Of a DNA stretch of 64,000 nucleotides, positions 34,768 to 48,063 are shown one piece after another. The stretch comes from an uncultured Chthonomonadaceae bacterium. GTDB taxonomy: Bacteria > Armatimonadota > Chthonomonadetes > Chthonomonadales > Chthonomonadaceae. Position 1 is the stretch's first letter. Each line of letters starts with the position of its first letter. Under the pieces are notes generated by a model. The model did no database searches. It saw only the letters and a program-made list of their open reading frames with translations, and had not been told where the DNA came from. The position numbers and the translations under genes are program-made. The DNA lies in assembly GCA_963835065.1 (NCBI GenBank), contig CAWIEK010000044.1, positions 128,001 through 192,000 of the forward strand, read 5' to 3'.

Positions 34768-36088
34768 ATGGACTTGTTTGAGAAAATCAATCGCTCGTTT
34801 GGATCGTGGTACGAAGGGCTGTTTGGCGGCGGCGGTGACGACGTGCGGCCCAAAGACATTCTGCGCCGGATTCTGGCCGCAATGGAAGACAACCGCAAAG
34901 AGGGCTTCGATAACCGCGTGTACGTGCCCAACCAGTACGTGCTGGAAATCAACGTTCACGATGACGAGGAAAAAGACTACCTGCTGTCGTTTTTGGATCG
35001 GGGCGAGTTGGAGTCCGCGATACGTCGTTATTGCAAACAAAACAACTACGTGATTCGCGGCGCGCTGGATTTCACCATTAAAGAGGTAGACGATCCCGAA
35101 CTCAACGACAAGCGCGGCGAGAAAGTGCGCGTTCGCTGCCGCTACAATACCAAAATCACCGGGCCGGAAACTGCTTCGCCTGCTTCGGCGGCAGAGAAAT
35201 TCGCGGCAAACGGCAGTCGCGGACATGCGGACGCGGACGGCGAAGACCGCACGGTTGCCAGCGTGTCGCGCCAGATGGAAGACGAGGAGGGCGGCACGGT
35301 TCCCGCCGTGACGCGGGCCGCCCTTGTCGTTTATGCCCCGGATCGCCCGCCCTTTCGCTACGGAATTGCGCGCGGCAATGTGACGATTGGGCGTTCCAAA
35401 TCCGGCAACGATTTGACCGTTGACAACGACGGGCAGATTTCCAAGCGCCATGCGCGTATCGAACTCGACGCGGACGGCAAGTTCACGGTTTATGATTTGG
35501 GCAGCACCAACGGCACGAAAGTCAACGGGCGGCGCGTGGAAAACCGAACGCTCAACGATGGTGACGAGATTTTAGTCGGCACGACCCGGCTCGTGTTCCA
35601 GCAGGCGCGTCCTGCCGAAATGGATATGGAAGCGCCCGTTGATAACGAGGAAGAATCCGGCACGGTTGCGAATGTGGAAACCCGTACGCCAGCGGCAACC
35701 AACGGCCCTACCGCCGCGCCCACGCGCTCCCATCCGCGACAACGACGGCAGTTCCGGCCCCGCGCCTCCGATTCGTTCGCTGCGCGCCCGCACCGCGCGC
35801 CTTGTGCTGACCAATAAAGGGCATGACGTGGATGATTTTCTCTTAGCGTCCGAAACGGTGATTGGCCGGGGCGTCACCAACGACATCGTACTCCCGGATC
35901 GCTCCATCGCCACGCGCCATGCCCGCATCATCAACGACGGCACGGACTATACGCTGGAAAGCCTGGGCAACGCCGTCACCACGCTCAACGCCCTGCCCAT
36001 GCCCGCAGGCCACGCGCAGCCGCTCAAAGACGGCGACCGCATCGGCCTGGGCGACCTGCTCCTGCGCTTTGAGAGTGGACAACCGTGA
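34768..36088 (+). CDS. FhaA-like protein: DUF3662 + two FHA domains, frameshift near 35730
   Basis: YVPNQY (DUF3662); IGRS..ISKRHA..DLGSTNGT; second FHA IGRG..IATRHA..LKDGDRI in the shifted frame. Confidence 0.88.
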
Positions 36089-36092
36089 GGGA

Positions 36093-36154
36093 AATGATGA
36101 GTGATGAGTGATGAGTGATGAACGGAACTTATTCATCACTCATCATTCAGCATT
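36093..36154. repeat. Inverted tandem-heptamer element (GTGATGA)
   Basis: aatgatgagtgatgagtgatgagtgatgaa ... ttcatcactcatcattcagcatt. Confidence 0.88.
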
Positions 36155-36172
36155 GTTCTTGAAAGCACTCCT

Positions 36173-36271
36173 ATGAACGTACTCTTGGGAATGGCGCGGT
36201 ATTTGATGGCGGCGGGGTTTTTGCTGTTCATTGCGCTGCTGATCGGGCTGATGCGGCGGGATCGCGAATGA
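36173..36271 (+). CDS. 32-aa single-pass membrane microprotein
   Basis: MNVLLGMARYLMAAGFLLFIALLIGLMRRDRE; host-like codons; below the ORF-track cutoff. Confidence 0.6.
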   Translation: MNVLLGMARYLMAAGFLLFIALLIGLMRRDRE

Positions 36272-36336
36272 TCCGGGGCATCTGAAGTCATACAAAACAA
36301 TCTAAAACAATCCGAATTCATCCGAGGCTGTCTTTT

Positions 36337-38096
36337 ATGGATATACAAACTGATAATTCGCCGACGCGCGGCTTCAACCCGATTGCCGTCGGCTACAAAA
36401 CGGATAAGGGGCGTAAGCGTTCCGGCAATGAGGACAGTTTCGCCGTGTTTTCCGGGGAAGAATTGGGTGGGAATTTAGAGGGCTTGTTCGTGGTTGCGGA
36501 TGGCATGGGCGGCGCGAAGGGCGGCGAAATCGCCTCCAATCTCGTGATTAACAGCCTGCCGGAAGAAGTGCGGCTTGGAACTGCCGAACTGTCCGGCAAT
36601 GATCTGCCGCATGAACTCGCCAATTTGCTCAATCGCAGCATCAATTATGCCAACAGCGAAGTGTGGAACTACAAGCAGCAGCACGAAGGTTTTCAGGGCA
36701 TGGGCACAACCTGCGTAACCGCGATGATTGCGCATGCTCGCAAGTCGTGGGGTGACAAGCAAGGGTTTCTGGTGCTTGCCAATGTGGGCGACAGCCGCGC
36801 GTATCTGCTGCGGCAGGGCCGACTGAGCCAGATTACGGAAGACCATTCGGAAGTATGGGAGCAGGTCAAGGCGGGCAAAATGACGCCGGAACAGGCCGCT
36901 ACCAGCCGCTTCCGCAACACCATTACGCGGGCGATGGGACTGCGCTCGACTGTGAAGCCCGATATTACTATACGTACTCTGGAAGCCGGCGACGTGATTT
37001 TGATCTGCTCCGATGGCCTGTCAATCGAAGTGGACGATCTCACGATTGCCCGTCTGCTTGCCGGCAGCCCCGACCCGCAAACCGCCTGTGACCGCCTGGT
37101 GGAAACGGCTTTGAACAACGGCGGCTCCGACAACGTGACGGTTGTTGCTCTGCACTATGGCGCGTTTACGCCGTTAGACACAGCCACGTCTGCGCGGGAG
37201 CCGATGGCGGATGCCTGGGAGGAGAGCGAGAACGAGGACGTAACCGATCCCAATCAGGTTTGGAAGCGCAGCCTGGGTTCCGGGCGAACGTCGCAGCGGG
37301 AAGCGCCGGAAGAAGCGGAAGAGCGTTACGTATCCGGTTCGCGCCATTCCGCGCGGCTGGAATACGCCGGAGGCGTTGCAACTCCCCGGCGCGGCGTGTC
37401 GCCCCTGCTGTTCGGCCTGTTACTGCTTGCAGCGCTTGCCGAAGGCGCGGGGCTGTACCTGTTTTGGACCGGCAAACTCCAGCCTCGAAACGCCGCGCCC
37501 AAACCGCCGCCCGTTGCCGTTGAACCGACTTCCAAGCCGCTTGCTTATGGAAAGCCCGCGCTGCTGTACGGGCGTTCGCCCTTGTGGGAGGGCGCGCTGC
37601 ACGTTTTGCCGGATGGAAAGTTGCTGGTAGTCACGATAAACGGAGATGTGCTTGCGATTACCGCGTCCGGCCCGCAGAGTGGCTCACTGAACTTTTGGGC
37701 AATACGGCAGGCAAGCCCGTTCCCTTGCTGCAGCCCGTCAAGCGCATGGACGGTTCGATCAAGCCTCCTCCGATCGTGCCCATGCTTGCCGTAGACGTCA
37801 GCGGCAACCGCTACGAACTGAATCCTGCGACTCGCGCCATTGACAAGTACGACCCATCCGGCGTGATACAGGTTCACAGCATCGCGCAGGGCGCGCTGCA
37901 ACTCCCAACTAATCTGACGGTGGATAAATCCGGCAATATCTACGTGATTGACAATCACATTCTCAAAAAGATCACGGCGGTTCCCGACACCGGGCAGGCA
38001 GCAAACTCGTCTAACGCAGCGACAGCCCCGGCAGCGCCACCCGCGCAATCGCCTGCCGCTTCCAAACCGCCTACTCTTGAGCCAGATCATGAGTAA
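36337..38096 (+). CDS. PP2C (Stp1/PstP-like) phosphatase with a TM helix and NHL-like C-terminal domain, frameshift near 37690
   Basis: NED, VADGMGG, GMGTT, NVGDSRAY, CSDGL, GGSDNVT. Confidence 0.9.
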
Positions 38097-38130
38097 CATA
38101 GGCATGTATGTTGAAGGAGAGCTATAAGCC

Positions 38131-38400
38131 ATGTTGCCACAAACATTAGAAGGGGCTTGGGAAGATATACGCGCCCATGACGCGGAATTGATGGGGCATC
38201 GAGTACGCCTGACGATACTAACAACAGAAATTCCCTTGAAGCAGGCGCAAAGCGTGTCGCAAGGGCCTAATGAGGCAATGCTGACAGCCATGCGGGAAGC
38301 AGAGAAAATTCAGGAAGACATGCATCCGAAGTCTGGTTCAGATTCTGTTGCTATCATCCGCGAGGGACGCGCAGGAGCTATGTATTTGCCATGCCTTTAG
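38131..38400 (+). CDS. Small hypothetical, antitoxin-like protein
   Basis: GAAGGAG RBS; ..DSVAIIREGRAG; overlaps the kinase start. Confidence 0.65.
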   Translation: MLPQTLEGAWEDIRAHDAELMGHRVRLTILTTEIPLKQAQSVSQGPNEAMLTAMREAEKIQEDMHPKSGSDSVAIIREGRAGAMYLPCL

Positions 38401-40388
38401 GAATGATTGGAAAATACGAAAAGCTGGACGTGCTGGGTTCGGGCGTGTCCGGGATTGTCTACCTTGCCAAAGACACCCTGCTCAACAAGCAGGTCGCGCT
38501 GAAGGAAGTGGACGTGCAGGCCGGGGATTTGCGCCGCTTTTTGGAAGAAGCGCGCGTGATGGATCGGCTGCGCCATCCCAACATCGTGCGCGTCAACAAT
38601 GTGGATCGCATCGAAGGCAAAGTTGTCATTGACATGGAGTACGTGCGCGGGCAGAACCTGCAGGAACTGCTGCGGGGCGAGGGGCCGCTTCCCATTGGCC
38701 GCTCGCTTGATATTGTGGCGCAGGTGCTGGACGCGCTGCACTACGCGCACCAGATGCAGACGGTGCATCGGGACATCAAGCCCGCCAACATTCTCATTGG
38801 GCGTGATGGGCAGGTGAAACTCGTGGACTTCGGGCTGGCCGAAATCCTTGCCACCAATGCGTATGCGGGCGGCGCGGGCACGTATGCGTACATGGCTCCC
38901 GAAGATTTTGCCGAAGATGACCGCTCGGATCATCAGTCCGATATATGGGCGGTGGGCGTCACGCTGTACGAGATGCTTACGCATCAGCGCCCGTTTACGG
39001 TCGCCAAAGTGAAAGACCCGTTTGCGTGGAAGCGCGTTCTTGAATCCGAATCGCCCACGCCGTTAAGCGAGTACCTGCCGGATGCCCCCCCGATGCTGCA
39101 AGCCATTCTGGAACGCGCCCTGGCCCGCGACAAGCAGCAGCGCTACCCCACAGCGGGCGAGTTCCGCGACGATTTAATCCGCTTTCAGCAGGGGCAGCAG
39201 GTTGCCTCGCAAACTCTGCGCCAAGCCCACAGCCGACGCAACCCCCTGCTGCGCCGCAACAATGCCGCGCCCGCTTCCCCTGCCAATACGCCTCTGCCCG
39301 GTTTTTCCGGCGCGTTGCCCGGCAACCCTCTGAACTCGCCCTCCGGCTCCGCGCGCCCTCCTGCAAACATGCCCGCCACTCCCATAAGCAGCACAGGTCA
39401 ACCCCTGCCCTGGTGGGAACGGGGTGAAGAAGGGATAAGGGAGGGAACAGGGAACAGGGAACAGGGAACAGAAGATAGTGGCCTATCAACTATCAACTAT
39501 CAACTACCAACTACTGAGCGCATGGTGGCGGATGTGAATCAGCCGAGTGCGAACAACAAGGCGCAGGCGAGTGGAGCGTCTGCGGAGCGCAAGGCTCGGC
39601 TGCCGTTTGCGCGGCGCGACTCGACGATGCGCCTGACGGTGGAACCGGGGCGCGTGGATTTTGGGGCGGTGCGCAAGGGCGAACTGCCGTCCGTGAAGAT
39701 TACGGCGCGGGTCACGGGCGGGGATGGCATTGTGGAGGGGCGCGTGGTTCATTCCTCGGACTGGCTGACCGTGCATCCGCCCGCCATCAACCGTGCCAAA
39801 CAATCGCTGACCTTGACCGCGCACTCTGCCCGCGTATGGGAAACGGGTGAGTTCCACGAAACCGTTCGCATTGAAACGAACGCGGGAACGGTAGACGTGC
39901 CGACGCGACTTGTCGTGCTTCCCGCGCGGCCTTCGTTTATGCAGGCCGCTGTTTGGTTTGTGCCGCTGTTCGGCGCGGCCTTATTGCCCGCGCTGGCAAT
40001 CGCCTTTGCGGGCGGCAACGGGCATCACGGCGCGGACCTTCTGGCGCGCTACACGCCGAGCGCGGCAACCGTTTCGGGCGCGTTGGGACTGATGCTGCTG
40101 CTGGTCAGCATTGCCGCCGACATCGGTATTGCGGAGCGTATCGCCTGCGGCGTGATGATCGCGGTCATGGGAGCCGTATTGGGCATGTCGAGCGGCCATG
40201 CATCGAATGGTTCCGTCCACCGCGCCGGCATAGAAAGCGCGTTCGTCCTGGGCGGCTTCATGGGCGGCATACTATTGCTGCAACTGCTGCACCTGCGCAA
40301 ATGGAAATTATGGGCGTTCGTGGTCGCCGCGCTCGGCCTCGCGTTCGGCGGCGCATTGCTGCAAATGCTGGGGGTGAGTGTCGGCTGA
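38391..40388 (+). CDS. Hanks-type Ser/Thr protein kinase with an Ig-like (BACON-like) domain and C-terminal TM helices
   Basis: LGSGVSG, VALK, HRDIKPAN, DFG, YMAPE, SDIWAVG. Confidence 0.96.
   Translation: MPLGMIGKYEKLDVLGSGVSGIVYLAKDTLLNKQVALKEVDVQAGDLRRFLEEARVMDRLRHPNIVRVNNVDRIEGKVVIDMEYVRGQNLQELLRGEGPLPIGRSLDIVAQVLDALHYAHQMQTVHRDIKPANILIGRDGQVKLVDFGLAEILATNAYAGGAGTYAYMAPEDFAEDDRSDHQSDIWAVGVTLYEMLTHQRPFTVAKVKDPFAWKRVLESESPTPLSEYLPDAPPMLQAILERALARDKQQRYPTAGEFRDDLIRFQQGQQVASQTLRQAHSRRNPLLRRNNAAPASPANTPLPGFSGALPGNPLNSPSGSARPPANMPATPISSTGQPLPWWERGEEGIREGTGNREQGTEDSGLSTINYQLPTTERMVADVNQPSANNKAQASGASAERKARLPFARRDSTMRLTVEPGRVDFGAVRKGELPSVKITARVTGGDGIVEGRVVHSSDWLTVHPPAINRAKQSLTLTAHSARVWETGEFHETVRIETNAGTVDVPTRLVVLPARPSFMQAAVWFVPLFGAALLPALAIAFAGGNGHHGADLLARYTPSAATVSGALGLMLLLVSIAADIGIAERIACGVMIAVMGAVLGMSSGHASNGSVHRAGIESAFVLGGFMGGILLLQLLHLRKWKLWAFVVAALGLAFGGALLQMLGVSVG
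39442..39515. repeat. Two non-matching heptamer arms inside the kinase CDS
   Basis: (GGGAACA)x4 at 39442-39471 and (CTATCAA)x3-CTACCAA at 39483-39515. Confidence 0.88.
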
Positions 40389-40504
40389 CGCTGACACCTC
40401 CCTGCATCGCTGTGCCTGCCTGTTGGTGTTCCTGATTTCCGTAAACATCCCCGCATACTCCTGCTATTCTACTTATTTGTTGCGTCTTTCAGCGTCATAT
40501 AACG

Positions 40505-40533
40505 TTGACAGCATGACGCCAAACCGCTATAAT
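40505..40533 (+). promoter_or_regulatory. Perfect consensus sigma70 promoter
   Basis: TTGACA-17 bp-TATAAT. Confidence 0.85.
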
Positions 40534-40657
40534 AGACTTTTCATCCTGAGACTTCGCCATTTTATCTTTCTCCGCTGAGAATGTTCCGCCCTTGTCCAAA
40601 GAATACCATTCAGCCTTATGCGGGGAAACGTCAACGCCGCCCATTCTGCACCCTGCT

Positions 40658-41174
40658 ATGACTTTGTGCTGGCGCGTTCATTTGCTGAGGCGCGAACCGG
40701 AACGACTACCAATTCTGCTGTTGGTTGTCGGAGTGGGCGCGGCTTGCGTATGGCTGATGTTCGGAACACTGTTGCCCATGCTGGCGGCGCTCCTGCTGTT
40801 GATGGGAAGCGTCAGCGAGTATCTGTTTCCGATTACCTATCGGCTCACGGACACGGAAGTATGTCAAGAGTTCGCTCACGTCCCGCATACAGTTGCCGTG
40901 GAAGGACGCGCGCCGCTGCAACATGGGACACAACGCGCTGCTACTGACTTCCCTGCCTGTTCCGTCACGCCTAGATGCTTTTCGCGGCGTCCTGCTGCGC
41001 TTTGCCCCGGAGGGACAACCCGGCGACTACGCTTCTGTTTGCGCGATTGTTTCTCACTATGCTCCTCATGTTCTGCCGGATGACATTGCCGCACATTTCG
41101 CAGACAAAGGAATTGCCAACGACGAAGCTGCCGATTCCTGCCATGTTGACAATGAAGACAATGTTGAGAGATAA
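40658..41174 (+). CDS. Small membrane protein (2 TM + soluble domain), frameshift near 40870
   Basis: WRVHLLRREP..hydrophobic hairpin..YLFPITYRLT, continuing ..PWKDARR..PSRLDAFRG in a second frame; may start at TTG 40592. Confidence 0.7.
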
Positions 41175-41261
41175 GGGCTGTGCAGGGGAAAACAACTTGC
41201 GTGGAAACGCTGCAAATGAAAATGCCACAGCCGCGTAGTTTTGCCTGGAGAATCCACAAAC

Positions 41262-41555
41262 ATGACGGCCTTTGATTGGGATGCGGAACTTACGGACGAG
41301 CGGCGTGACGCCTTGATTGACCGCCTGGCGCAGCAAATTCAGGCGCGGCGCATGAACCTACCCGCCATTTTGTTTTTAGAGATGCACAAGCCGCTTGCGT
41401 TTCTGACCGGGCAGGGATTGCTGCTGAGTTCCGGCTTTCTCGCGCCTCTCTTCGGCCCGCAAAACGTGCAGCAGTACGCCCGCCTGTTTGAATCCCGTGA
41501 CAACATAGAGTTGCTGATTCGGAGGATAGAGGAGGAGGTAGACGGTAGAAGGTAG
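41262..41555 (+). CDS. Small hypothetical protein
   Basis: GGAG RBS; PAILFLEMHKPLAFL..FESRDNIELLIRRIE. Confidence 0.85.
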   Translation: MTAFDWDAELTDERRDALIDRLAQQIQARRMNLPAILFLEMHKPLAFLTGQGLLLSSGFLAPLFGPQNVQQYARLFESRDNIELLIRRIEEEVDGRR

Positions 41556-41667
41556 ACGGTAGACGGCAGCAAATGCACTGCTTCCACCCTATGATTTCTA
41601 CAAGGCTATGAGCAAGCAGGTATGTCTACTGTCTACTGTCTACCGTCTACCGTCTACCTTCTACTCC
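41536..41667. repeat. Inverted tandem-heptamer element (GACGGTA)
   Basis: aggtagacggtagaaggtagacggtagacgg ... gtctactgtctactgtctaccgtctaccgtctaccttctac; the left arm encodes the last codons and stop of the upstream gene. Confidence 0.9.
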
Positions 41668-41677
41668 CGGAGCGCCC

Positions 41678-42460
41678 ATGGAACACGCTAACACCGCCGT
41701 GCGCCTGTTTGTGCCGTTGTTCAGCCTGATTATCGTGGCGATGATTTTGACTGCCCGGAAGCGTTCGCTGTTTATCCGGCGGATTCAGGGGCTGACGGCC
41801 ATAGATGAAGCCATTGGACGCGCTACCGAAATGGGCCGTCCGATGCTGTGCTGCAACGGGCTAGGCCGCGCCACGACAAGCGGCACGGACATTGACACGC
41901 TGCAAGCGCTGTCCATCATCAACTACATCATTCGTTCGTCGGCCAAGTTCGGGACGCGCGCCATCGTGCCCATCTATCAGCCGACGACCCTTCCCATCGC
42001 GCAGGAGATTGTCCAGAACGCTTACGCGGCGGAGGGGCGGAGCGATCTGTATAATCCGAGTGACGTGCGCTTTTTGTCCAATCAGCAGTTCGCGTTTGCC
42101 GCAGCGGTTTCGGGCATCATCTGGCGCGAACAGGTGGCGGCCAGTTTCCTGTTCGGCTACTTTTATGCCGAAGCCCTGATTTTTGCCGAAACAGGGCAGC
42201 AGGCGGGCGCGATACAGGTAGCCGGAACGCCCACGACGACGCAAATCCCGTTCTTCATTGCCGCCTGCGATTACGTGATTATCGGCGACGAATTTTACGC
42301 GGCAAGCGCGTATCTGTCCCGCGAACCGACGCTGTTAGGCAGCCTCGTCGGGCAGGACATCTGCAAGGGCATTGTAATTGCTCTCGTGGTTATCGGCTGC
42401 GCGCTGGCGACCCTTGCGCCCACGCTTGCGCCGAAGTTTATAGAGTTTTTGGCGAAGTAA
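41678..42460 (+). CDS. DUF6754-type membrane-anchored protein
   Basis: IRRIQGLTAIDEAIGRATEMGRP..QIPFFIAACDYVIIGDEFYAASAYLSREP..GSLVGQD. Confidence 0.85.
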   Translation: MEHANTAVRLFVPLFSLIIVAMILTARKRSLFIRRIQGLTAIDEAIGRATEMGRPMLCCNGLGRATTSGTDIDTLQALSIINYIIRSSAKFGTRAIVPIYQPTTLPIAQEIVQNAYAAEGRSDLYNPSDVRFLSNQQFAFAAAVSGIIWREQVAASFLFGYFYAEALIFAETGQQAGAIQVAGTPTTTQIPFFIAACDYVIIGDEFYAASAYLSREPTLLGSLVGQDICKGIVIALVVIGCALATLAPTLAPKFIEFLAK

Positions 42461-42499
42461 CTCCTGTCATCCTCAACGTCAGGTAAAAGGAATGAACGC

Positions 42500-43339
42500 T
42501 TGCTCGCTCAATTTTTTCATCCCGTAACAGGCTCGTCATGGTACGCCTACATCGTGGGCGCGCTGCTCGCGTCAGGCATGCTGCTTGGCCTGCTTACCCT
42601 CGTGCCGCAGAATTTGCGCCGGTATGTGATACAGGGCGCGACGTTTTTGGGCGGGCTGTACTGGGCGCTGGAGTTTTTTCTGCCCACGCATCCCATGCCG
42701 ACGTCGCAAAGCCCGAAAGCGGTGGGCAATTTTCTGACGCCGTATGTTGTGCCGTTCGGCAACGTCGCCAGTATTGTGGCCGCGTTTGCTGTCGGGTTGG
42801 GCATCATCAATCTGGTGCAGGTACACGGCAAGCGCATTACCAAAGGCGGCTCGAATTCTTTCAACAGCGCGGTCTTTTTCGCAGGATTGATCGTGATGTT
42901 TACGGTCAGCATCCTGCGTAAAGCCCACCCGAACGCCATTAACAAGAATCTGAACACGCTGGTTTTCGATGGCGGCCTGCAAACCATGGACGCCACGATG
43001 TTTTCCATTGTGGCCTTTTACATTGTGTCCGCGTCCTACCGCGCCTTCCGGGTCCGCTCCGTAGAGGCCACCCTGCTGCTCGTCACGGCAACCCTCGTGA
43101 TGCTCGGACAGATCGCCATTGGAACCTGGCTTACGCACACCCTGCCCGAAGCCAACGCGGGGCCGATGGGATGGACGCACAACCTGCGCCTTGAAATCAT
43201 CCGCGACTGGATTTTAACCAAAGCCAACGCCCCCGCAAGCCGCGCTATCGCCTTCGGCCTGGGCATCGGTGGCCTGGCCGTCGCCCTGCGCATCTGGCTC
43301 GGCCTGGAACGGGGCAGTTATTTCGACAACAATGGATAG
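42500..43339 (+). CDS. Multi-pass membrane protein of unknown function
   Basis: About 7 hydrophobic segments; MFSIVAFYIVSASYRAFRVRSVEA..LRIWLGLER. Confidence 0.88.
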   Translation: MLAQFFHPVTGSSWYAYIVGALLASGMLLGLLTLVPQNLRRYVIQGATFLGGLYWALEFFLPTHPMPTSQSPKAVGNFLTPYVVPFGNVASIVAAFAVGLGIINLVQVHGKRITKGGSNSFNSAVFFAGLIVMFTVSILRKAHPNAINKNLNTLVFDGGLQTMDATMFSIVAFYIVSASYRAFRVRSVEATLLLVTATLVMLGQIAIGTWLTHTLPEANAGPMGWTHNLRLEIIRDWILTKANAPASRAIAFGLGIGGLAVALRIWLGLERGSYFDNNG

Positions 43340-43441
43340 GTTTCAGGTTGCAGGTTTCAGGTTTCAGGGGCAATGCTGCTATGCGTAACATAACTAAAAT
43401 GCAGCGTCTTCCTGATACCTGATACCTGCAACCTGAAACCT
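43338..43441. repeat. Inverted tandem-heptamer element (GGTTTCA)
   Basis: Arms 43338-43368 and 43411-43441, 29/31 complementary; the variant GGTTGCA is mirrored in register. Confidence 0.9.
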
Positions 43442-43451
43442 CATCCGCAGG

Positions 43452-44315
43452 ATGGGCATGAACCTACTACGTTTTCTACAAGAAGTGGACCGGCGGTTTT
43501 TGTATGCGCTGCTGCTGCTGGCGGTATGCGCGCCGTTCTTCCTCAAAACGCGCATCCCGGTTCCGATTTCACCGGAAACGCGCGCCCTTTACGACCGCAT
43601 AGAAGCCTTGCCGCCCGGCAGTTTCGTGCTGCTAGGGATGGATTGGTCGGCGGGAACGCGGGGAGAAAACGGGGCGCAAACGGAAGCCCTGATGCGGCAC
43701 CTGATGAAGCGCAAGCTGCGCTTTGCGATGCTGGCGTTTTCCAGCCCGCAGGGCGCGACGCTGGGGCAGATCATTGCGGAACGCCTGCAAACGGAATACG
43801 GCTACCGGGAAGGCATTGACTGGTGCAACTTCGGCTTCAAAACCGATCAGCAGAACTTTTTGCAGGCGTTTGTCCGCAACATTCCCGCGTCTATCGGCGC
43901 GGACGCGCGGGGCATCCCGATTGAGTCCTTGCCCGTCATGAAGGGCATCAACAGCGGACATGATGTGGCGTTTCTGCTGGAAATAACCGGAACCAACACG
44001 TTCAACATCTACATTCAGTTCATGCAAGGCCCCGCCGATGTGCCGATGGCCGTTGCGCTCACGGCAGTTATGGCCCCCGAAGCCTACAATTATGTGGACA
44101 GCAAACAGATTGTCGGGATGCTCAACGGCTTGAAGGGCGGCAACGAGTACGAGCAACTGCTCGGCGTGTTCGGCAAGGCGTCACGGGCAAGCAATTCGTC
44201 CTCGTTCGCGCATCTGCTCATCATTACCTTTATCGCGCTTGGCAACGTCGCCATGCTGCTGGAACGCCGGCAGCGCGCCCGACTGCTCGGATTAAACCAA
44301 TCCGCCAAACAATAA
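43452..44315 (+). CDS. Membrane protein (TM - soluble domain - TM) of unknown function
   Basis: DRRFLY..YDRIEALPPGS..YGYREGIDWCNFGF..GLKGGNEYEQL..AHLLII. Confidence 0.88.
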   Translation: MGMNLLRFLQEVDRRFLYALLLLAVCAPFFLKTRIPVPISPETRALYDRIEALPPGSFVLLGMDWSAGTRGENGAQTEALMRHLMKRKLRFAMLAFSSPQGATLGQIIAERLQTEYGYREGIDWCNFGFKTDQQNFLQAFVRNIPASIGADARGIPIESLPVMKGINSGHDVAFLLEITGTNTFNIYIQFMQGPADVPMAVALTAVMAPEAYNYVDSKQIVGMLNGLKGGNEYEQLLGVFGKASRASNSSSFAHLLIITFIALGNVAMLLERRQRARLLGLNQSAKQ

Positions 44316-44336
44316 CCAACCGCGAGGCACGAACCC

Positions 44337-45125
44337 ATGACATCGTTTTCACCCTGGCTTGCCGCCCATATTTCCACACTCAGCGCCTGGTTCGGCGCAA
44401 TCTGTACGCTCGGCCTGTACTCGGTTTTGTACAAGGAAAACAAGCTGTATCGGATGTTCGAGCATCTGTTTTTGGGCATGGCGACCGGCTACATGATCGC
44501 GCTGGCGTGGAACGACGTGCTGCTGGTCAAATGGTGGCAGCCGATGCATGATAAGGGCGAGTGGTGGTACATTTTCGCGCTCCTGCCCGGCCTAATGTAC
44601 TATTTCATCTACTCGCGCAAAAACAACTGGATTGCGCGCCTCGTTGTCGGCTTCTTTTTGGGCGTCGCGTCCGGGCAGGCGTTCAAAGCCTTTGTCAACG
44701 ACACATGGCCGCAAATCGCCACGTCGTTCAAGCCCTTGATTCCGCATCCTGCTATATCCGCAACGTCCGATCATCCCGCCGTGAAAGCCCTGACGCTCCC
44801 GGACGCCCTCAACAACCTGCTGTTCATGTTCATTCTGCTGTGCGTGTTGAGCTACTTCTTCTTTTCCTTTGAGCAAAAGCATCCCGTCCTGAACGGCTCC
44901 GCCAAACTGGGACGCTGGCTGCTGATGTTCACGTTCGGCGCGATTTTCGGCTCGACCATCATGGCCCGTCTCGCCCTGCTCATAGACCGCATGGACTTTC
45001 TGCTCAACGACTTCGGCCCCCACATCGGCGGACCGGGCGTGATGTTCGGCGTCCTCGCGCTGCTGACGGTCATAGTCCTCCTCCTCGTCACCCGCCAAAA
45101 ACCAACCACGGAAGAACCGGAGTAA
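44337..45125 (+). CDS. Multi-pass membrane protein of unknown function
   Basis: LYSVLYKENKLYRMFEHLFLG..GRWLLMFTFGAIFGSTIMARL. Confidence 0.88.
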   Translation: MTSFSPWLAAHISTLSAWFGAICTLGLYSVLYKENKLYRMFEHLFLGMATGYMIALAWNDVLLVKWWQPMHDKGEWWYIFALLPGLMYYFIYSRKNNWIARLVVGFFLGVASGQAFKAFVNDTWPQIATSFKPLIPHPAISATSDHPAVKALTLPDALNNLLFMFILLCVLSYFFFSFEQKHPVLNGSAKLGRWLLMFTFGAIFGSTIMARLALLIDRMDFLLNDFGPHIGGPGVMFGVLALLTVIVLLLVTRQKPTTEEPE

Positions 45126-45327
45126 ACCACGGGGAACACGGGGACACGGGGAGGAGAGGGGTAGGACAATAGGGGATACTTACCCATTATAAAACAGAGG
45201 ACATGGATCCACAAGGATACAAGATGTAATCAGCCTTCTCCGTATTTATATGGTTCATCCGTTTTGTGTGGTTCTCCTTGTCCTTCCCCTCTCCTCCCCG
45301 TGTCCCCGTGTTCCCCGTGGTTTACTC
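45120..45327. repeat. Inverted 9/10-mer element (ACACGGGGA family) with 42-bp perfect arms
   Basis: 45120-45161 is the exact reverse complement of 45286-45327. Confidence 0.92.
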
Positions 45328-45672
45328 TACCGTTTGCATAAGTTGGAGCAGGTTGTTTTCCGTGTCGCGGAACATGGCGAAGGTGTAGCCGCCTTCGCTG
45401 GTGGGTGGCAGGAAGAAGGCGACGCCCTTGCCGGTCAGTTCGGCGAATGTGGCGCGGACATCCGCAACGAACAGGGCCAGCGAAACGGCGTTGGGATCGA
45501 AGCGCAGGTCGGGCGACACATCGGGAGCCAGCTGCAGGCCGACCCCCTCCGCAAACAGCACAATGTCTTCCTGTTCGGACTCGACGCTGAACCCCAGCAG
45601 GTCGCGGTAAAACCGCAGCGCCTTCTCAATATCCTGCACCATCACCATCGCCCGAATACCCTGTAATTGCAA
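45322..45672 (-). CDS. VOC/glyoxalase family protein
   Basis: VQDIEKALRFYRDLLG..FRDTENNLLQL; GGGAG RBS before TTG 45672. Confidence 0.9.
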   Translation of the reverse strand: MQLQGIRAMVMVQDIEKALRFYRDLLGFSVESEQEDIVLFAEGVGLQLAPDVSPDLRFDPNAVSLALFVADVRATFAELTGKGVAFFLPPTSEGGYTFAMFRDTENNLLQLMQTVE

Positions 45673-45712
45673 CGTAGATTCTCCCTTGATGCAGGCGCGT
45701 GGCGCAGGAGCG

Positions 45713-45952
45713 TCAGGCGGCGGACTTTTGGGCTTCGCGGCGTTCGCGCTCTTCACGCTCCTCGCGGTACCAGGCAGCCAGTTCCCCGTTCATGTCCGTT
45801 TCGGGAATACCCGGTTCCCGATATTCCAGCATCGCAAGCAGTTCTTCCGGCGTCATCTGGCAAATGCGTTCCAGTACGCGCTTTGTTACTTCCGGGTGGG
45901 TGGGCGGCAAGTTCAGTTTTTCCATTGGACATTTCTCCACAAACGGCTTCAC
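45713..45952 (-). CDS. Small hypothetical protein (possible antitoxin)
   Basis: Charged 70-79 aa ORF just downstream of the interrupted gene; start uncertain. Confidence 0.5.
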   Translation of the reverse strand: MKPFVEKCPMEKLNLPPTHPEVTKRVLERICQMTPEELLAMLEYREPGIPETDMNGELAAWYREEREERERREAQKSAA

Positions 45953-45970
45953 GGTATATCAGATAGCTCA

Positions 45971-46549
45971 TCAGGGAAATTTTACCAGATGTAGGCGGGA
46001 AAGGCAACTCGCATCACGCACGGCAATCTGTACATGCGCTAATTCCAGTATTTTCGATCCCGGATAAAGCGGCTGTCCTTCGGGAAAGCTGCCGCGCACC
46101 GTTTGAACGGGTCGCGCGTTTTGTTCCTCTATAAGCAGGCAGTACGTATCAATTACGCGACGATCCAGAAAGTGCGCTCCCGATGCTGTATTTCGCGGCA
46201 AGTTACCGAAGCCCACGAACGACACCATGCCCTAATAAACGCGCACTAATTCACCGCTGTTCTGTGTGTCCAGCAGGTTCAGACTGTTTCCCAAGCGGAT
46301 GGTAACGCCGACAACGGCGGCGTCCTGTCCGAGCGGTTCAAAGCGTCTGCGCGCCCAATCTAGAGTGCGGTAGGGCGCGTACTCCCAGAAGTAGATGCCT
46401 CTGCCGAGCCAATCATAGGCGTTTTCGGACACGGCAAACTGCTGTTCGGTCAGTATCTTTTCCGCCGTTGCGCGGGTGCAGCCATGATAGCCGAGAATGG
46501 TGTTAGGAGCCGTGTACGGGCGTCGTTGTGGAAAGTGAGTTGGCGTCAA
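45971..46549 (-). pseudogene. ADP-ribosyltransferase-like (DUF3990-like) protein with an in-frame TAG at 46232-46234
   Basis: GYHG..WLGRGIYFWE, then in the same frame after the stop ..VRGSFPEG..HVQIAVRD. Confidence 0.65.
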
Positions 46550-46653
46550 GGATAAATTCTCTTTGTCGAAGTGAAGGAAGGCGTGGGAGAAGCAAGAACG
46601 GAAACCTGAATGGGAACTCAGACGTTGCCTGGCTTGGACATTTACGTTCTGAA

Positions 46654-48063
46654 TTAATGAGCGTCCAGCAAGGTGAGGCTGCCGGAAACGGCGGTGGTTA
46701 AGGCTTGCTGGCCTGTGCCGTCCACTTTGATGGTGTACAGGCTGTTGGTAGAGTTGCTGGTTGTGGTGGCGTCGAAAATGATCTGGGTTCCGTCCGTACT
46801 GAAGCGCGCGGTTCCAATGGACGGAGCCGCCAATTTCGTGATCTGCGTTGGGCTGGAGCCGTCGGCGTTGATAGTGAAAATATCGTATTTATTGCTGGAC
46901 TGCGCCACGTACACGATTTTGCTGCCGTCCGGGCTATACGTGTACCAGGGCACGACAGTGGGGCCGAATGTGGGAGTTGAAGTCAGTCCGGTTCCGTCCG
47001 CATTTACGAGGTTGTACTGTAACGTCGTGCCGCCGCTCGTCGTGGTTGAGGTAAAGCGAATCTGGCCGGATTTTGTATACGCGGGATTGTCTGCATTGAA
47101 GCCGTTGAAATTTCTCGTGATCTGCGTCATTCCGGTTCCATCCGGCTTGATGGTATAAATCTGGTCGCTGCCCGTTACATCGTAAATAAACACGATGGTT
47201 TTGCCGTCGGAACTGTAGGAGGGCGTTCGGGGCCGCGCCTGCTGATTATCGGGCCGCAAGCCGCCAATGAGAAGTTGCTGTACGCTGCTGCCGTCCGGGG
47301 CCGCGACAACAAGCAAATCTCCCACCGTGGATTGCGTATCATACACCAGGCTTTTGGCGTCCGGGGCAAAGGCGGCGTGTCCGATGCTTTCGCTGCCTTG
47401 TCCGCCCGTTGTGCTGATCGGCAGCGCAGTGGAACTGCCTACACTGGTCGCGTACAGCGTTCCGGCGTTGGACAGGCCGGTGTTGGACAGGAACAGCAGG
47501 GCTGTGGCGCGGTTACTGCCCGTGCCGCCGCCCGTTGTCGTCGTGACAATCGTAGACGCCAGAACCGCGTATACGCCCAGCGTGGCTGCTGTGCCGGACA
47601 CCACTTTGTTGTTGGTATCCAGCGAACTGTCGCTAACCAGCGTCCAAGCTCCGCTCACCACCTCATACAGTTGGAGACTGCTTTCCTGCGCGCCTTTGGG
47701 CAGCGCGCCGCCGTTGTAGCGAATAGAAATACGCGCGGTTCCCGACAGCGTAGCGGCGGAACTGGTGAAACTGTAAGCCGTGCCGGATACCACGCGAACA
47801 TCGGAGGGATACGAGGTCGTCTGCTGCACGGAATACAGCGCGGTGGTGGAGGTCGTGCTGCTGCTGTTGGCCTGTATAAGCAACGTGGCGTTGCCGTTGA
47901 CGATTTCGCCGCCGCCACTGCCGATAGTCTGCGTCACGGCGGGCGTTCCGCCACCGGCGATAGTGCCGCCGCCGCATCCGGCCAGAAACAGCAAAACAGT
48001 CAGGCAAGCCAATGTGCCCATCGCATAGTGAACTAATTTTTTAAACGCTTGGGTTTGACGCAT
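46654..48063 (-). CDS. Lipoprotein with TolB-like (PD40) beta-propeller repeats
   Basis: Lipobox LAGC; repeats YSSDGKTIVF, YSPDGSKIVY, FSTDGTQIIF. Confidence 0.9.
   Translation of the reverse strand: MRQTQAFKKLVHYAMGTLACLTVLLFLAGCGGGTIAGGGTPAVTQTIGSGGGEIVNGNATLLIQANSSSTTSTTALYSVQQTTSYPSDVRVVSGTAYSFTSSAATLSGTARISIRYNGGALPKGAQESSLQLYEVVSGAWTLVSDSSLDTNNKVVSGTAATLGVYAVLASTIVTTTTGGGTGSNRATALLFLSNTGLSNAGTLYATSVGSSTALPISTTGGQGSESIGHAAFAPDAKSLVYDTQSTVGDLLVVAAPDGSSVQQLLIGGLRPDNQQARPRTPSYSSDGKTIVFIYDVTGSDQIYTIKPDGTGMTQITRNFNGFNADNPAYTKSGQIRFTSTTTSGGTTLQYNLVNADGTGLTSTPTFGPTVVPWYTYSPDGSKIVYVAQSSNKYDIFTINADGSSPTQITKLAAPSIGTARFSTDGTQIIFDATTTSNSTNSLYTIKVDGTGQQALTTAVSGSLTLLDAH

Follow-up and report, generated by a model that had tools for sequence, protein, structure and literature searches.

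Six co-oriented genes (g1 to g6) follow a perfect promoter in a 64,000-nucleotide stretch, hereafter the window, of the 8.0 Mb genome of an uncultured Chthonomonadaceae bacterium (genome G000). Judging from gene content across genomes, these genes are inherited together with two genes located on another contig, which encode a GlmL/MutL-like ATPase of the actin fold (ASKHA) and a barrel-sandwich partner. We infer from sequence that the products of the six-gene cassette form a physical complex, and the cassette likely constitutes the membrane half of an ATP-driven machine. The promoter and the six forward-strand genes had been described in the first-pass annotation of this DNA and were found as follows, all six genes being single-copy in this genome (TM, transmembrane helix; ORF, open reading frame):

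40505..40533, + strand: perfect sigma-70-type promoter, TTGACA-17-TATAAT, 12/12 consensus match.
40592..41174, + strand: g1, accessory protein with two TM and a soluble domain at the C-terminus, split between two frames.
41262..41555, + strand: g2, small protein of 97 aa, with an ATG behind GGAGA (the ORF scan opens at the TTG at 41241).
41678..42460, + strand: g3, DUF6754 (PF20539), TM - Rossmann-like domain - TM, from profile match and model.
42500..43339, + strand: g4, polytopic, a predicted six-helix core plus an extra N-terminal helix here.
43452..44315, + strand: g5, TM - soluble domain - TM, the domain being predicted outside the membrane.
44337..45125, + strand: g6, polytopic, a predicted six-helix core plus an extra C-terminal helix here.
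G000:C1:65162-67192 and 68468-69664, another contig: GlmL/MutL-like actin-fold (ASKHA) ATPase and barrel-sandwich partner.

The order of the cassette genes is constant. In the genome scan, for which the best 80 of 550 confirmed matches were kept (mostly Armatimonadota, hence not independent), tblastn detected g3 and g4 in 80/80 loci, g5 in 76/80, g6 in 73/80 and g2 in 74/80, most misses falling at locus ends, and clustering placed the g1 family in 71/80. Among 80 metagenome loci, many of them short, g3 was found in 80, g2 in 68, g4 in 65, g1 in 54, g5 in 51 and g6 in 41. DUF6754 was present in 38 of 41 WOR-3 genomes (1-5 copies each), and the g3-g4-g5-g6 order was found in 20/20 WOR-3 regions, which were retrieved around DUF6754 matches. 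The DUF6754 neighbourhood analysis proposed in the first-pass annotation bears out its suggestion that the last four genes cluster in other bacteria, the order holding across Armatimonadota and WOR-3. The ESM Atlas sequence search returned only DUF6754 and hypothetical clusters; clusters of relatives, which are sequence clusters only, came from Chloroflexota, Bacillota, Planctomycetota, Zixibacteria and Bathyarchaeota, the sole archaeal sign being a cluster resembling g5 in which Bathyarchaeota is the phylum named most often. At 50% identity, and with E up to 0.001, the relatives of g5 fall into 5203 clusters. No match was detected in the plasmid collection, and no RNA dataset was among the sequencing runs listed as matches.

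The link with the ATPase is apparent from gene order. In two WOR-3 loci, genes for a PF13941 ATPase and a 373-residue barrel-sandwich protein stand directly before g3, and the counterparts of this pair in the genome under study lie on contig C1 (60% identity for the ATPase, 47% for the partner). In a joint gene-order set of 20 regions, 12 of them chosen for apparent linkage, the eight-gene order g1-g2-ATPase-partner-g3-g4-g5-g6 is complete in six (L222, L224, L226, L227, L231 and L232), with g2 directly preceding the ATPase gene; two regions (L228 and L229) have the order g1-to-g6-ATPase-partner, and four more show a partial order. Because relatives keep all eight genes together, the operon in the window may be regarded as an eight-gene operon from which the ATPase pair has moved away. 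The earlier statement that no ATPase is visible holds within the window but not for the system as a whole.

Joint presence and absence point in the same direction. The phylogenetic profiling that had been suggested as a check was carried out on 151 Armatimonadota genomes, each at least 90% complete: 131 have both cassette and ATPase, 18 have neither, two have only the ATPase and none has only the cassette. ATPase and cassette lie within a few kb on one contig in at least 19 of the 131 (counted by eye). The partner was found in 130/151 genomes and is missing from all 18 system-less ones; g6 and g1 were not found in 4/4 system-less genomes searched, with G000 as positive control. Among 41 relatives, 33 have both, four neither, three only the ATPase and one only the cassette, the discordant genomes being incomplete or fragmented, and the 41 WOR-3 genomes divide into 38 with both, two with neither and one with the ATPase only. 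The contrast in WOR-3 between 1-5 DUF6754 copies and mostly one close ATPase suggests that one ATPase pair serves several paralogous cassettes. A second, more distant ATPase paralogue (43-47% identity) occurs in the WOR-3 genomes G048, G049, G052, G061, G065 and G077.

The ATPase scores 431 bits against PF13941 (MutL), and its ASKHA phosphate motifs, DCGSTTTK and DIGGATTD, are invariant in 23/23 ATPases. It falls below the three NCBIfam cut-offs for the GlmL/Or-4 type (NF040745, 228.6/475; NF040744, 203.5/600; TIGR01319, 164.9/204), and its C-terminus is extended by about 110 or more residues relative to GlmL/MutL and Or-4. In biotin and lipoyl carriers, such as those of Na+-translocating decarboxylases, the hairpin of the barrel-sandwich domain bears an invariant lysine. 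Among 19 partners this position varies (K, S, R) and the aromatic FFG/LWG-LF tip is conserved; the partner is thus not such a carrier, since the hairpin lysine is not invariant. Between the ATPase and partner genes of L221 there is a gene (L221:11718-12386), also present in L239 and L240, for a 222-residue protein with an N-terminal helix and no NCBIfam family.

Among the cassette proteins only g3 passes a Pfam or NCBIfam cut-off, which g1, g2, g4, g5 and g6 do not meet. Its match to PF20539 (E 1.4e-92, 309.9 bits against a cut-off of 27, model positions 11-251 of 257) makes it a full-length member of a family without described function, and the first-pass annotation was right to call it DUF6754-type. 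It is also the most conserved subunit (mean column identity 47% versus 30% for g5). In the model (predicted local distance difference test, pLDDT, 88.7; predicted template-modelling score, pTM, 0.81) a helix, a six-stranded Rossmann-like domain and a second helix follow one another, and the domain carries the invariant polar residues E165, E171, Q180, Q189, D198 and E205. Foldseek gave no match to this model at E <=0.001, and the structural matches were generic (best Z 10.6, root-mean-square deviation (rmsd) 2.8, 136 aligned residues, at most 14% identity), the matched proteins being unrelated Rossmann enzymes. RCK chains, known from RCK/TrkA-N-regulated channels and transporters (Z 9.2-9.4, rmsd 3.0-5.7, 113-135 aligned), and transhydrogenase domain III (Z 9.3, rmsd 3.4, 139 aligned) are tied with dozens of such enzymes, dehydrogenases among them, and g3 has no Pfam TrkA_N match; unlike in either of these systems, its domain sits between two helices of a single chain.

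The charge distribution suggests an antiparallel design, in which the g3 domain would lie inside, the g5 domain outside, and the six-helix cores of g4 and g6 would be oppositely oriented. With helix limits delimited by eye, lysine plus arginine counts around helix 1 of g3 are 0.4 before and 4.5 after, placing the g3 domain inside, and those around the two g5 helices are 2.9/1.2 and 1.3/3.8, placing the g5 domain outside; the same bias places g4 N-in (core N-in/C-in) and g6 N-out. An alternating topology agrees with this bias at 15/16 helices. Natural g5-g6 fusions, which exist in some genomes, point the same way: since a C-in end must join an N-out start, an extra linker helix would be needed, and three fusion clusters indeed carry an additional hydrophobic linker segment (mean hydropathy 2.0-2.4). 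A fourth fusion, a single sequence that is possibly an artefact, runs from the g5 domain straight onto helix 3 of g6, which is also consistent with this topology.

Invariant residues crowd the predicted inner face, where g4 has the conserved motifs YRAFRxR and LERG. In g6, E42, H43, R211, R218 and FGAxFG are conserved, and each of the four core subunits has conserved polar residues within its helices or adjacent to them (g6 E42/H43/R211, g5 N265, g4 H109/E189, g3 D227/K230). Variable domains sit at predicted outer sites, namely an Fn3-like domain at the g3 N-terminus in WOR-3 and some Armatimonadota and, in g4, FG-GAP propeller, ankyrin, CBM-like and glycosidase-like regions, large g4 insertions being tolerated in predicted outer loops. 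Second cassettes of some Armatimonadota (L196, L198, L200 and L230) have a g4 insertion of 200-300 residues without a Pfam family, and neither g1 nor g2 was detected in those of L196, L198 and L200. Tandem subunit duplications also occur, of g3 in L137, L171 and L201, of g5 in L233, and of g5 within one chain in P0222.

The g6 monomer model is poorly packed, with long unpacked helices (pLDDT 85.3, pTM 0.57), a feature one would anticipate if the subunit folds against its partners. Its fold search, in which the top Foldseek match had E 1.7 and the highest Z was 7.2 (67 residues, rmsd 2.5), does not establish a new fold. The Foldseek part of the proposed structural check thus yielded no informative match for g3 or g6, and complex prediction gave no verdict: g4, g5 and g6 with g3 scored 0.68 and two partner-replaced controls 0.00, but the g4-replaced control reached 0.56. 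Mutual-information coupling over 101 paired rows (effective number 78) yielded mostly noise, and a combined alignment built on a natural g5-g6 fusion misplaced many g5 residues. PDB sequence searches with g3, g4, g5, g6, the ATPase and the partner returned nothing better than E 0.2. The fixed gene order, the g5-g6 fusions and the lack of an explanatory family or structure-sequence match for g4, g5 or g6 support the earlier proposal of a heteromeric membrane complex of undescribed kind, which had missed the ATPase pair.

Our favoured, still tentative, reading is that the system imports a cargo at the expense of ATP and is an importer of a new type, with an undescribed design. The outer g5 domain would capture a solute, aided by the variable outer domains (Fn3 of g3, propeller or carbohydrate-binding inserts of g4), and the solute would cross the membrane along the g4 and g6 helices. 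The conserved inner face, comprising the g3 domain, YRAFRxR and LERG of g4 and ENxxYRxxEH of g6, would be the docking site of the ATPase, and ATP hydrolysis there would release the cargo or pull it inward. The g1 and g2 proteins may be assembly or docking helpers. One ATPase pair would energise several paralogous cassettes.

In group II energy-coupling factor (ECF) transporters and ATP-binding cassette (ABC) importers the dedicated energiser is a P-loop ABC ATPase. These importers provide a works-like analogy, namely a shared energiser for several paralogous membrane modules and arginine-rich motifs on the predicted inner face, but the ATPase co-inherited with the cassette is of the actin fold (PF13941) and not a P-loop ABC protein. 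An ABC ATPase family was found near only 21/80 genome loci and in none of the eight-gene operons, and permease, EcfT and S-component families gave only scattered single weak matches among 101 members each of g4, g5 and g6 (25 commonest families listed per scan). By sequence, the system thus falls outside four known kinds, namely ABC/ECF, Rnf/Nqr, carrier-lysine and GlmL systems.

Several observations weigh against an importer built from one co-inherited, antiparallel complex. To our knowledge, no ASKHA ATPase powers a transporter. In the genome under study the ATPase pair is on a contig other than that of the cassette, and g1 is broken. The 18 joint absences are not independent, because 14 belong to one family (f6 14, f1 2, f12 1, f14 1), so that independent losses are few, involving at least four families. 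In L192 a g3 paralogue stands without g4-g6 alongside. The genes 3' of g6 are heterogeneous (49 clusters over 97 loci, the largest of 14), and no riboswitch or other Rfam match was present in 28 loci, leaving no hint to the cargo from this side. Regarding topology, the charge bias of g3 helix 2 is opposite to that predicted (0.2 before, 1.1 after) and that of g6 helix 2 is weak. Homology was not shown between g3 and g5 (E 0.03-0.06, reversed control 0.1) or between g4 and g6 (E 0.25-0.5), and true pseudo-symmetry is thus unproven; internal repeats and comparisons of g4/g6 halves were not significant either (best E 0.007, for the g6 halves). Two lineages have glycine-cleavage/lipoate-ligase genes next to the cassette (L201, L212 and L213; L049, L053, L058, L059, L068, L077, L081 and L134), but this adjacency is weak as a clue, since GcvP is also present in 5/5 genomes without the system, and the glycine-cleavage/lipoate link was rejected.

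A role in transmembrane signalling or envelope surveillance is, in our estimation, unlikely. In that case the variable outer domains would be sensors of a ligand or of stress, the signal would pass through the helices, and the ATPase pair would be a nucleotide switch and not a motor. A conserved core bearing variable domains (Fn3, FG-GAP propeller, ankyrin, CBM-like) would suit such a role, as would several cassettes per genome with one ATPase. However, no regulator, kinase or sigma factor is a conserved neighbour of the cassette, an outer add-on domain is absent from most Armatimonadota copies, this one included, and about 16 helices with conserved polar residues would seem to exceed what a simple relay needs.

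It is about as doubtful that the system serves envelope biogenesis or quality control, extracting, flipping or inserting a lipid, a lipid-linked precursor or a membrane protein, with the ATPase as an Hsp70-like remodeller. The strong consensus promoter kept across the phylum, the presence of the system in 131/151 genomes of varied families, the lack of metabolic neighbours and the amphipathic g2 are compatible with such a machine, and the conserved aromatic hairpin of the partner (FFG/LWG-LF) could touch the membrane. Against it, the system was not found in 18 genomes, some of them nearly closed (G125 in one contig, G148 in two), and for this reason is probably dispensable; moreover, the 2-5 divergent copies in small WOR-3 genomes would rather resemble substrate diversification.

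We give still less weight to a membrane-bound enzyme in which the ATPase, by analogy with the hydantoinase/oxoprolinase group, would activate a small substrate for the membrane part to channel or modify. The very high conservation of the ATPase and the invariant polar residues of the g3 domain could be so explained, and the ATPase has a weak Hydantoinase_A match at the cut-off (E 5.7e-05), but this match covers only the shared phosphate-2 region, and the conserved neighbours include no pathway enzymes.

A redox-driven ion pump of the Rnf/Nqr kind seems very improbable. NqrD/NqrE and RnfA/RnfE are antiparallel six-helix pairs with conserved membrane cysteines, and the outer subunit of these pumps carries a motif for attachment of flavin mononucleotide (FMN). 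Like them, the system under study has two six-helix proteins predicted to be oppositely oriented and a membrane-anchored outer domain, and its soluble partner contains a barrel-sandwich domain and shows a weak RnfC_N match (E 0.0013, below the cut-off). Unlike in those pumps, no cysteine is at least 90% conserved in g4 or g6, homology of g4 and g6 was not detected, g5 has no conserved FMN-attachment motif, and the operon lacks a flavin or Fe-S subunit, an ATPase standing in place of redox subunits.

The idea of an ordinary reactivase of a B12-dependent mutase, incidentally linked to the cassette, is largely refuted: the ATPase does match MutL, shares the ASKHA domain and intact phosphate motifs with GlmL/MutL of glutamate mutase and Or-4, and one paper (PMC4682846) describes MutL/GlmL as a chaperone that reactivates glutamate mutase, but it stays under all three GlmL-type cut-offs, is operonic with the cassette and, in the phylum sample, occurs without a mutase and travels with the partner and membrane genes. 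In that sample glutamate mutase E (PF06368) was found in 0/151 genomes and lysine-aminomutase alpha (PF09043) in 2/151, against 133/151 for the ATPase, other B12 enzymes being outside the search. For the importer, the action of the ATPase on the membrane complex may be likened to the chaperoning of glutamate mutase by GlmL as described in that paper.

The accessory genes are less regular. The first protein had been described as a 2-TM protein, which is true of the g1 family, but in this assembly g1 has a +1 frameshift near 40871. At about this position it is one base longer than the same-genus locus L031, and also than two closely related contigs from sequencing runs X2 and X3. As a frameshift check on 25 other loci of this genome gave 0/25, the extra base may be either an assembly error or a strain-specific break. 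The soluble domain of the L031 g1 has a weak match to bPH_6 (bacterial PH-like; E 0.043, below the cut-off). The small protein g2 is likely amphipathic and carries a conserved LEMHKPL-type motif.

The promoter at 40505-40533 is the only 12/12 site among ten promoter-like sites in 38000-48000. In loci with enough upstream DNA, a 12/12 promoter occurs within 300 bp upstream of g1 in 50/112 and one scoring at least 11 in 59/112, whereas a control stretch inside g3 reached a score of at least 10 in 0/112; the recurrence of the promoter before g1 exceeds chance. No additional motif was evident by eye around it. Perfect TTGACA-16/18-TATAAT sites number 63 in the 8.0 Mb genome, and they precede a mixture of genes in which inspection by eye showed no common theme.

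Three further features, none assigned to a strand, lie within or beside the operon:

45120..45327: inverted repeat with 50-nt arms between g6 and a convergent glyoxalase-family gene, likely marking the operon end.
41529..41666: intergenic inverted repeat made of 7-nt units; a 12-nt unit was counted 91 times genome-wide.
43338..43441: intergenic inverted repeat, likewise made of 7-nt units; a 14-nt unit was counted 94 times genome-wide.

The intergenic repeats were rejected as part of the system, their family being genome-wide. Of four palindrome motifs counted, three have 91-259 copies genome-wide, and a similar palindromic element is apparently inserted in frame in the kinase gene 38391-40388 and in one ATPase (L221:9163-11196), both insertions reading GTGNREQG and being absent from the other ATPases. 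The upstream genes (34768-40388) encode an FHA-domain protein, a PP2C phosphatase, whose gene is seemingly frameshifted (ORF 36337-37794 overlaps ORF 37584-38096), and a Ser/Thr kinase; a role for them in the system was rejected, given tblastn matches in 0/80 genome loci.

The system is near-core in the lineages sampled (131/151 Armatimonadota, 38/41 WOR-3), and its family was found in 0/14 well-known control genomes, which would explain why it has been overlooked so far. No paper describing it or naming DUF6754 turned up, subscription papers and supplements being outside the search. Many annotations as 'glutamate mutase L' would, by implication, be wrong. ATP-driven transporters known so far use ABC, P-type or rotary ATPases. 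It is possible, and we say so with somewhat more reserve than for the importer itself, that the system represents a class of its own among primary active transporters, common in phyla that are poorly cultured, in which an antiparallel four-subunit complex with a Rossmann-like domain on each face is powered by a shared actin/Hsp70-fold ATPase with a barrel-sandwich adaptor and not by an ABC, P-type or rotary motor. If this is true, an actin-fold ATPase coupled to a membrane complex would introduce a new principle of energy coupling.

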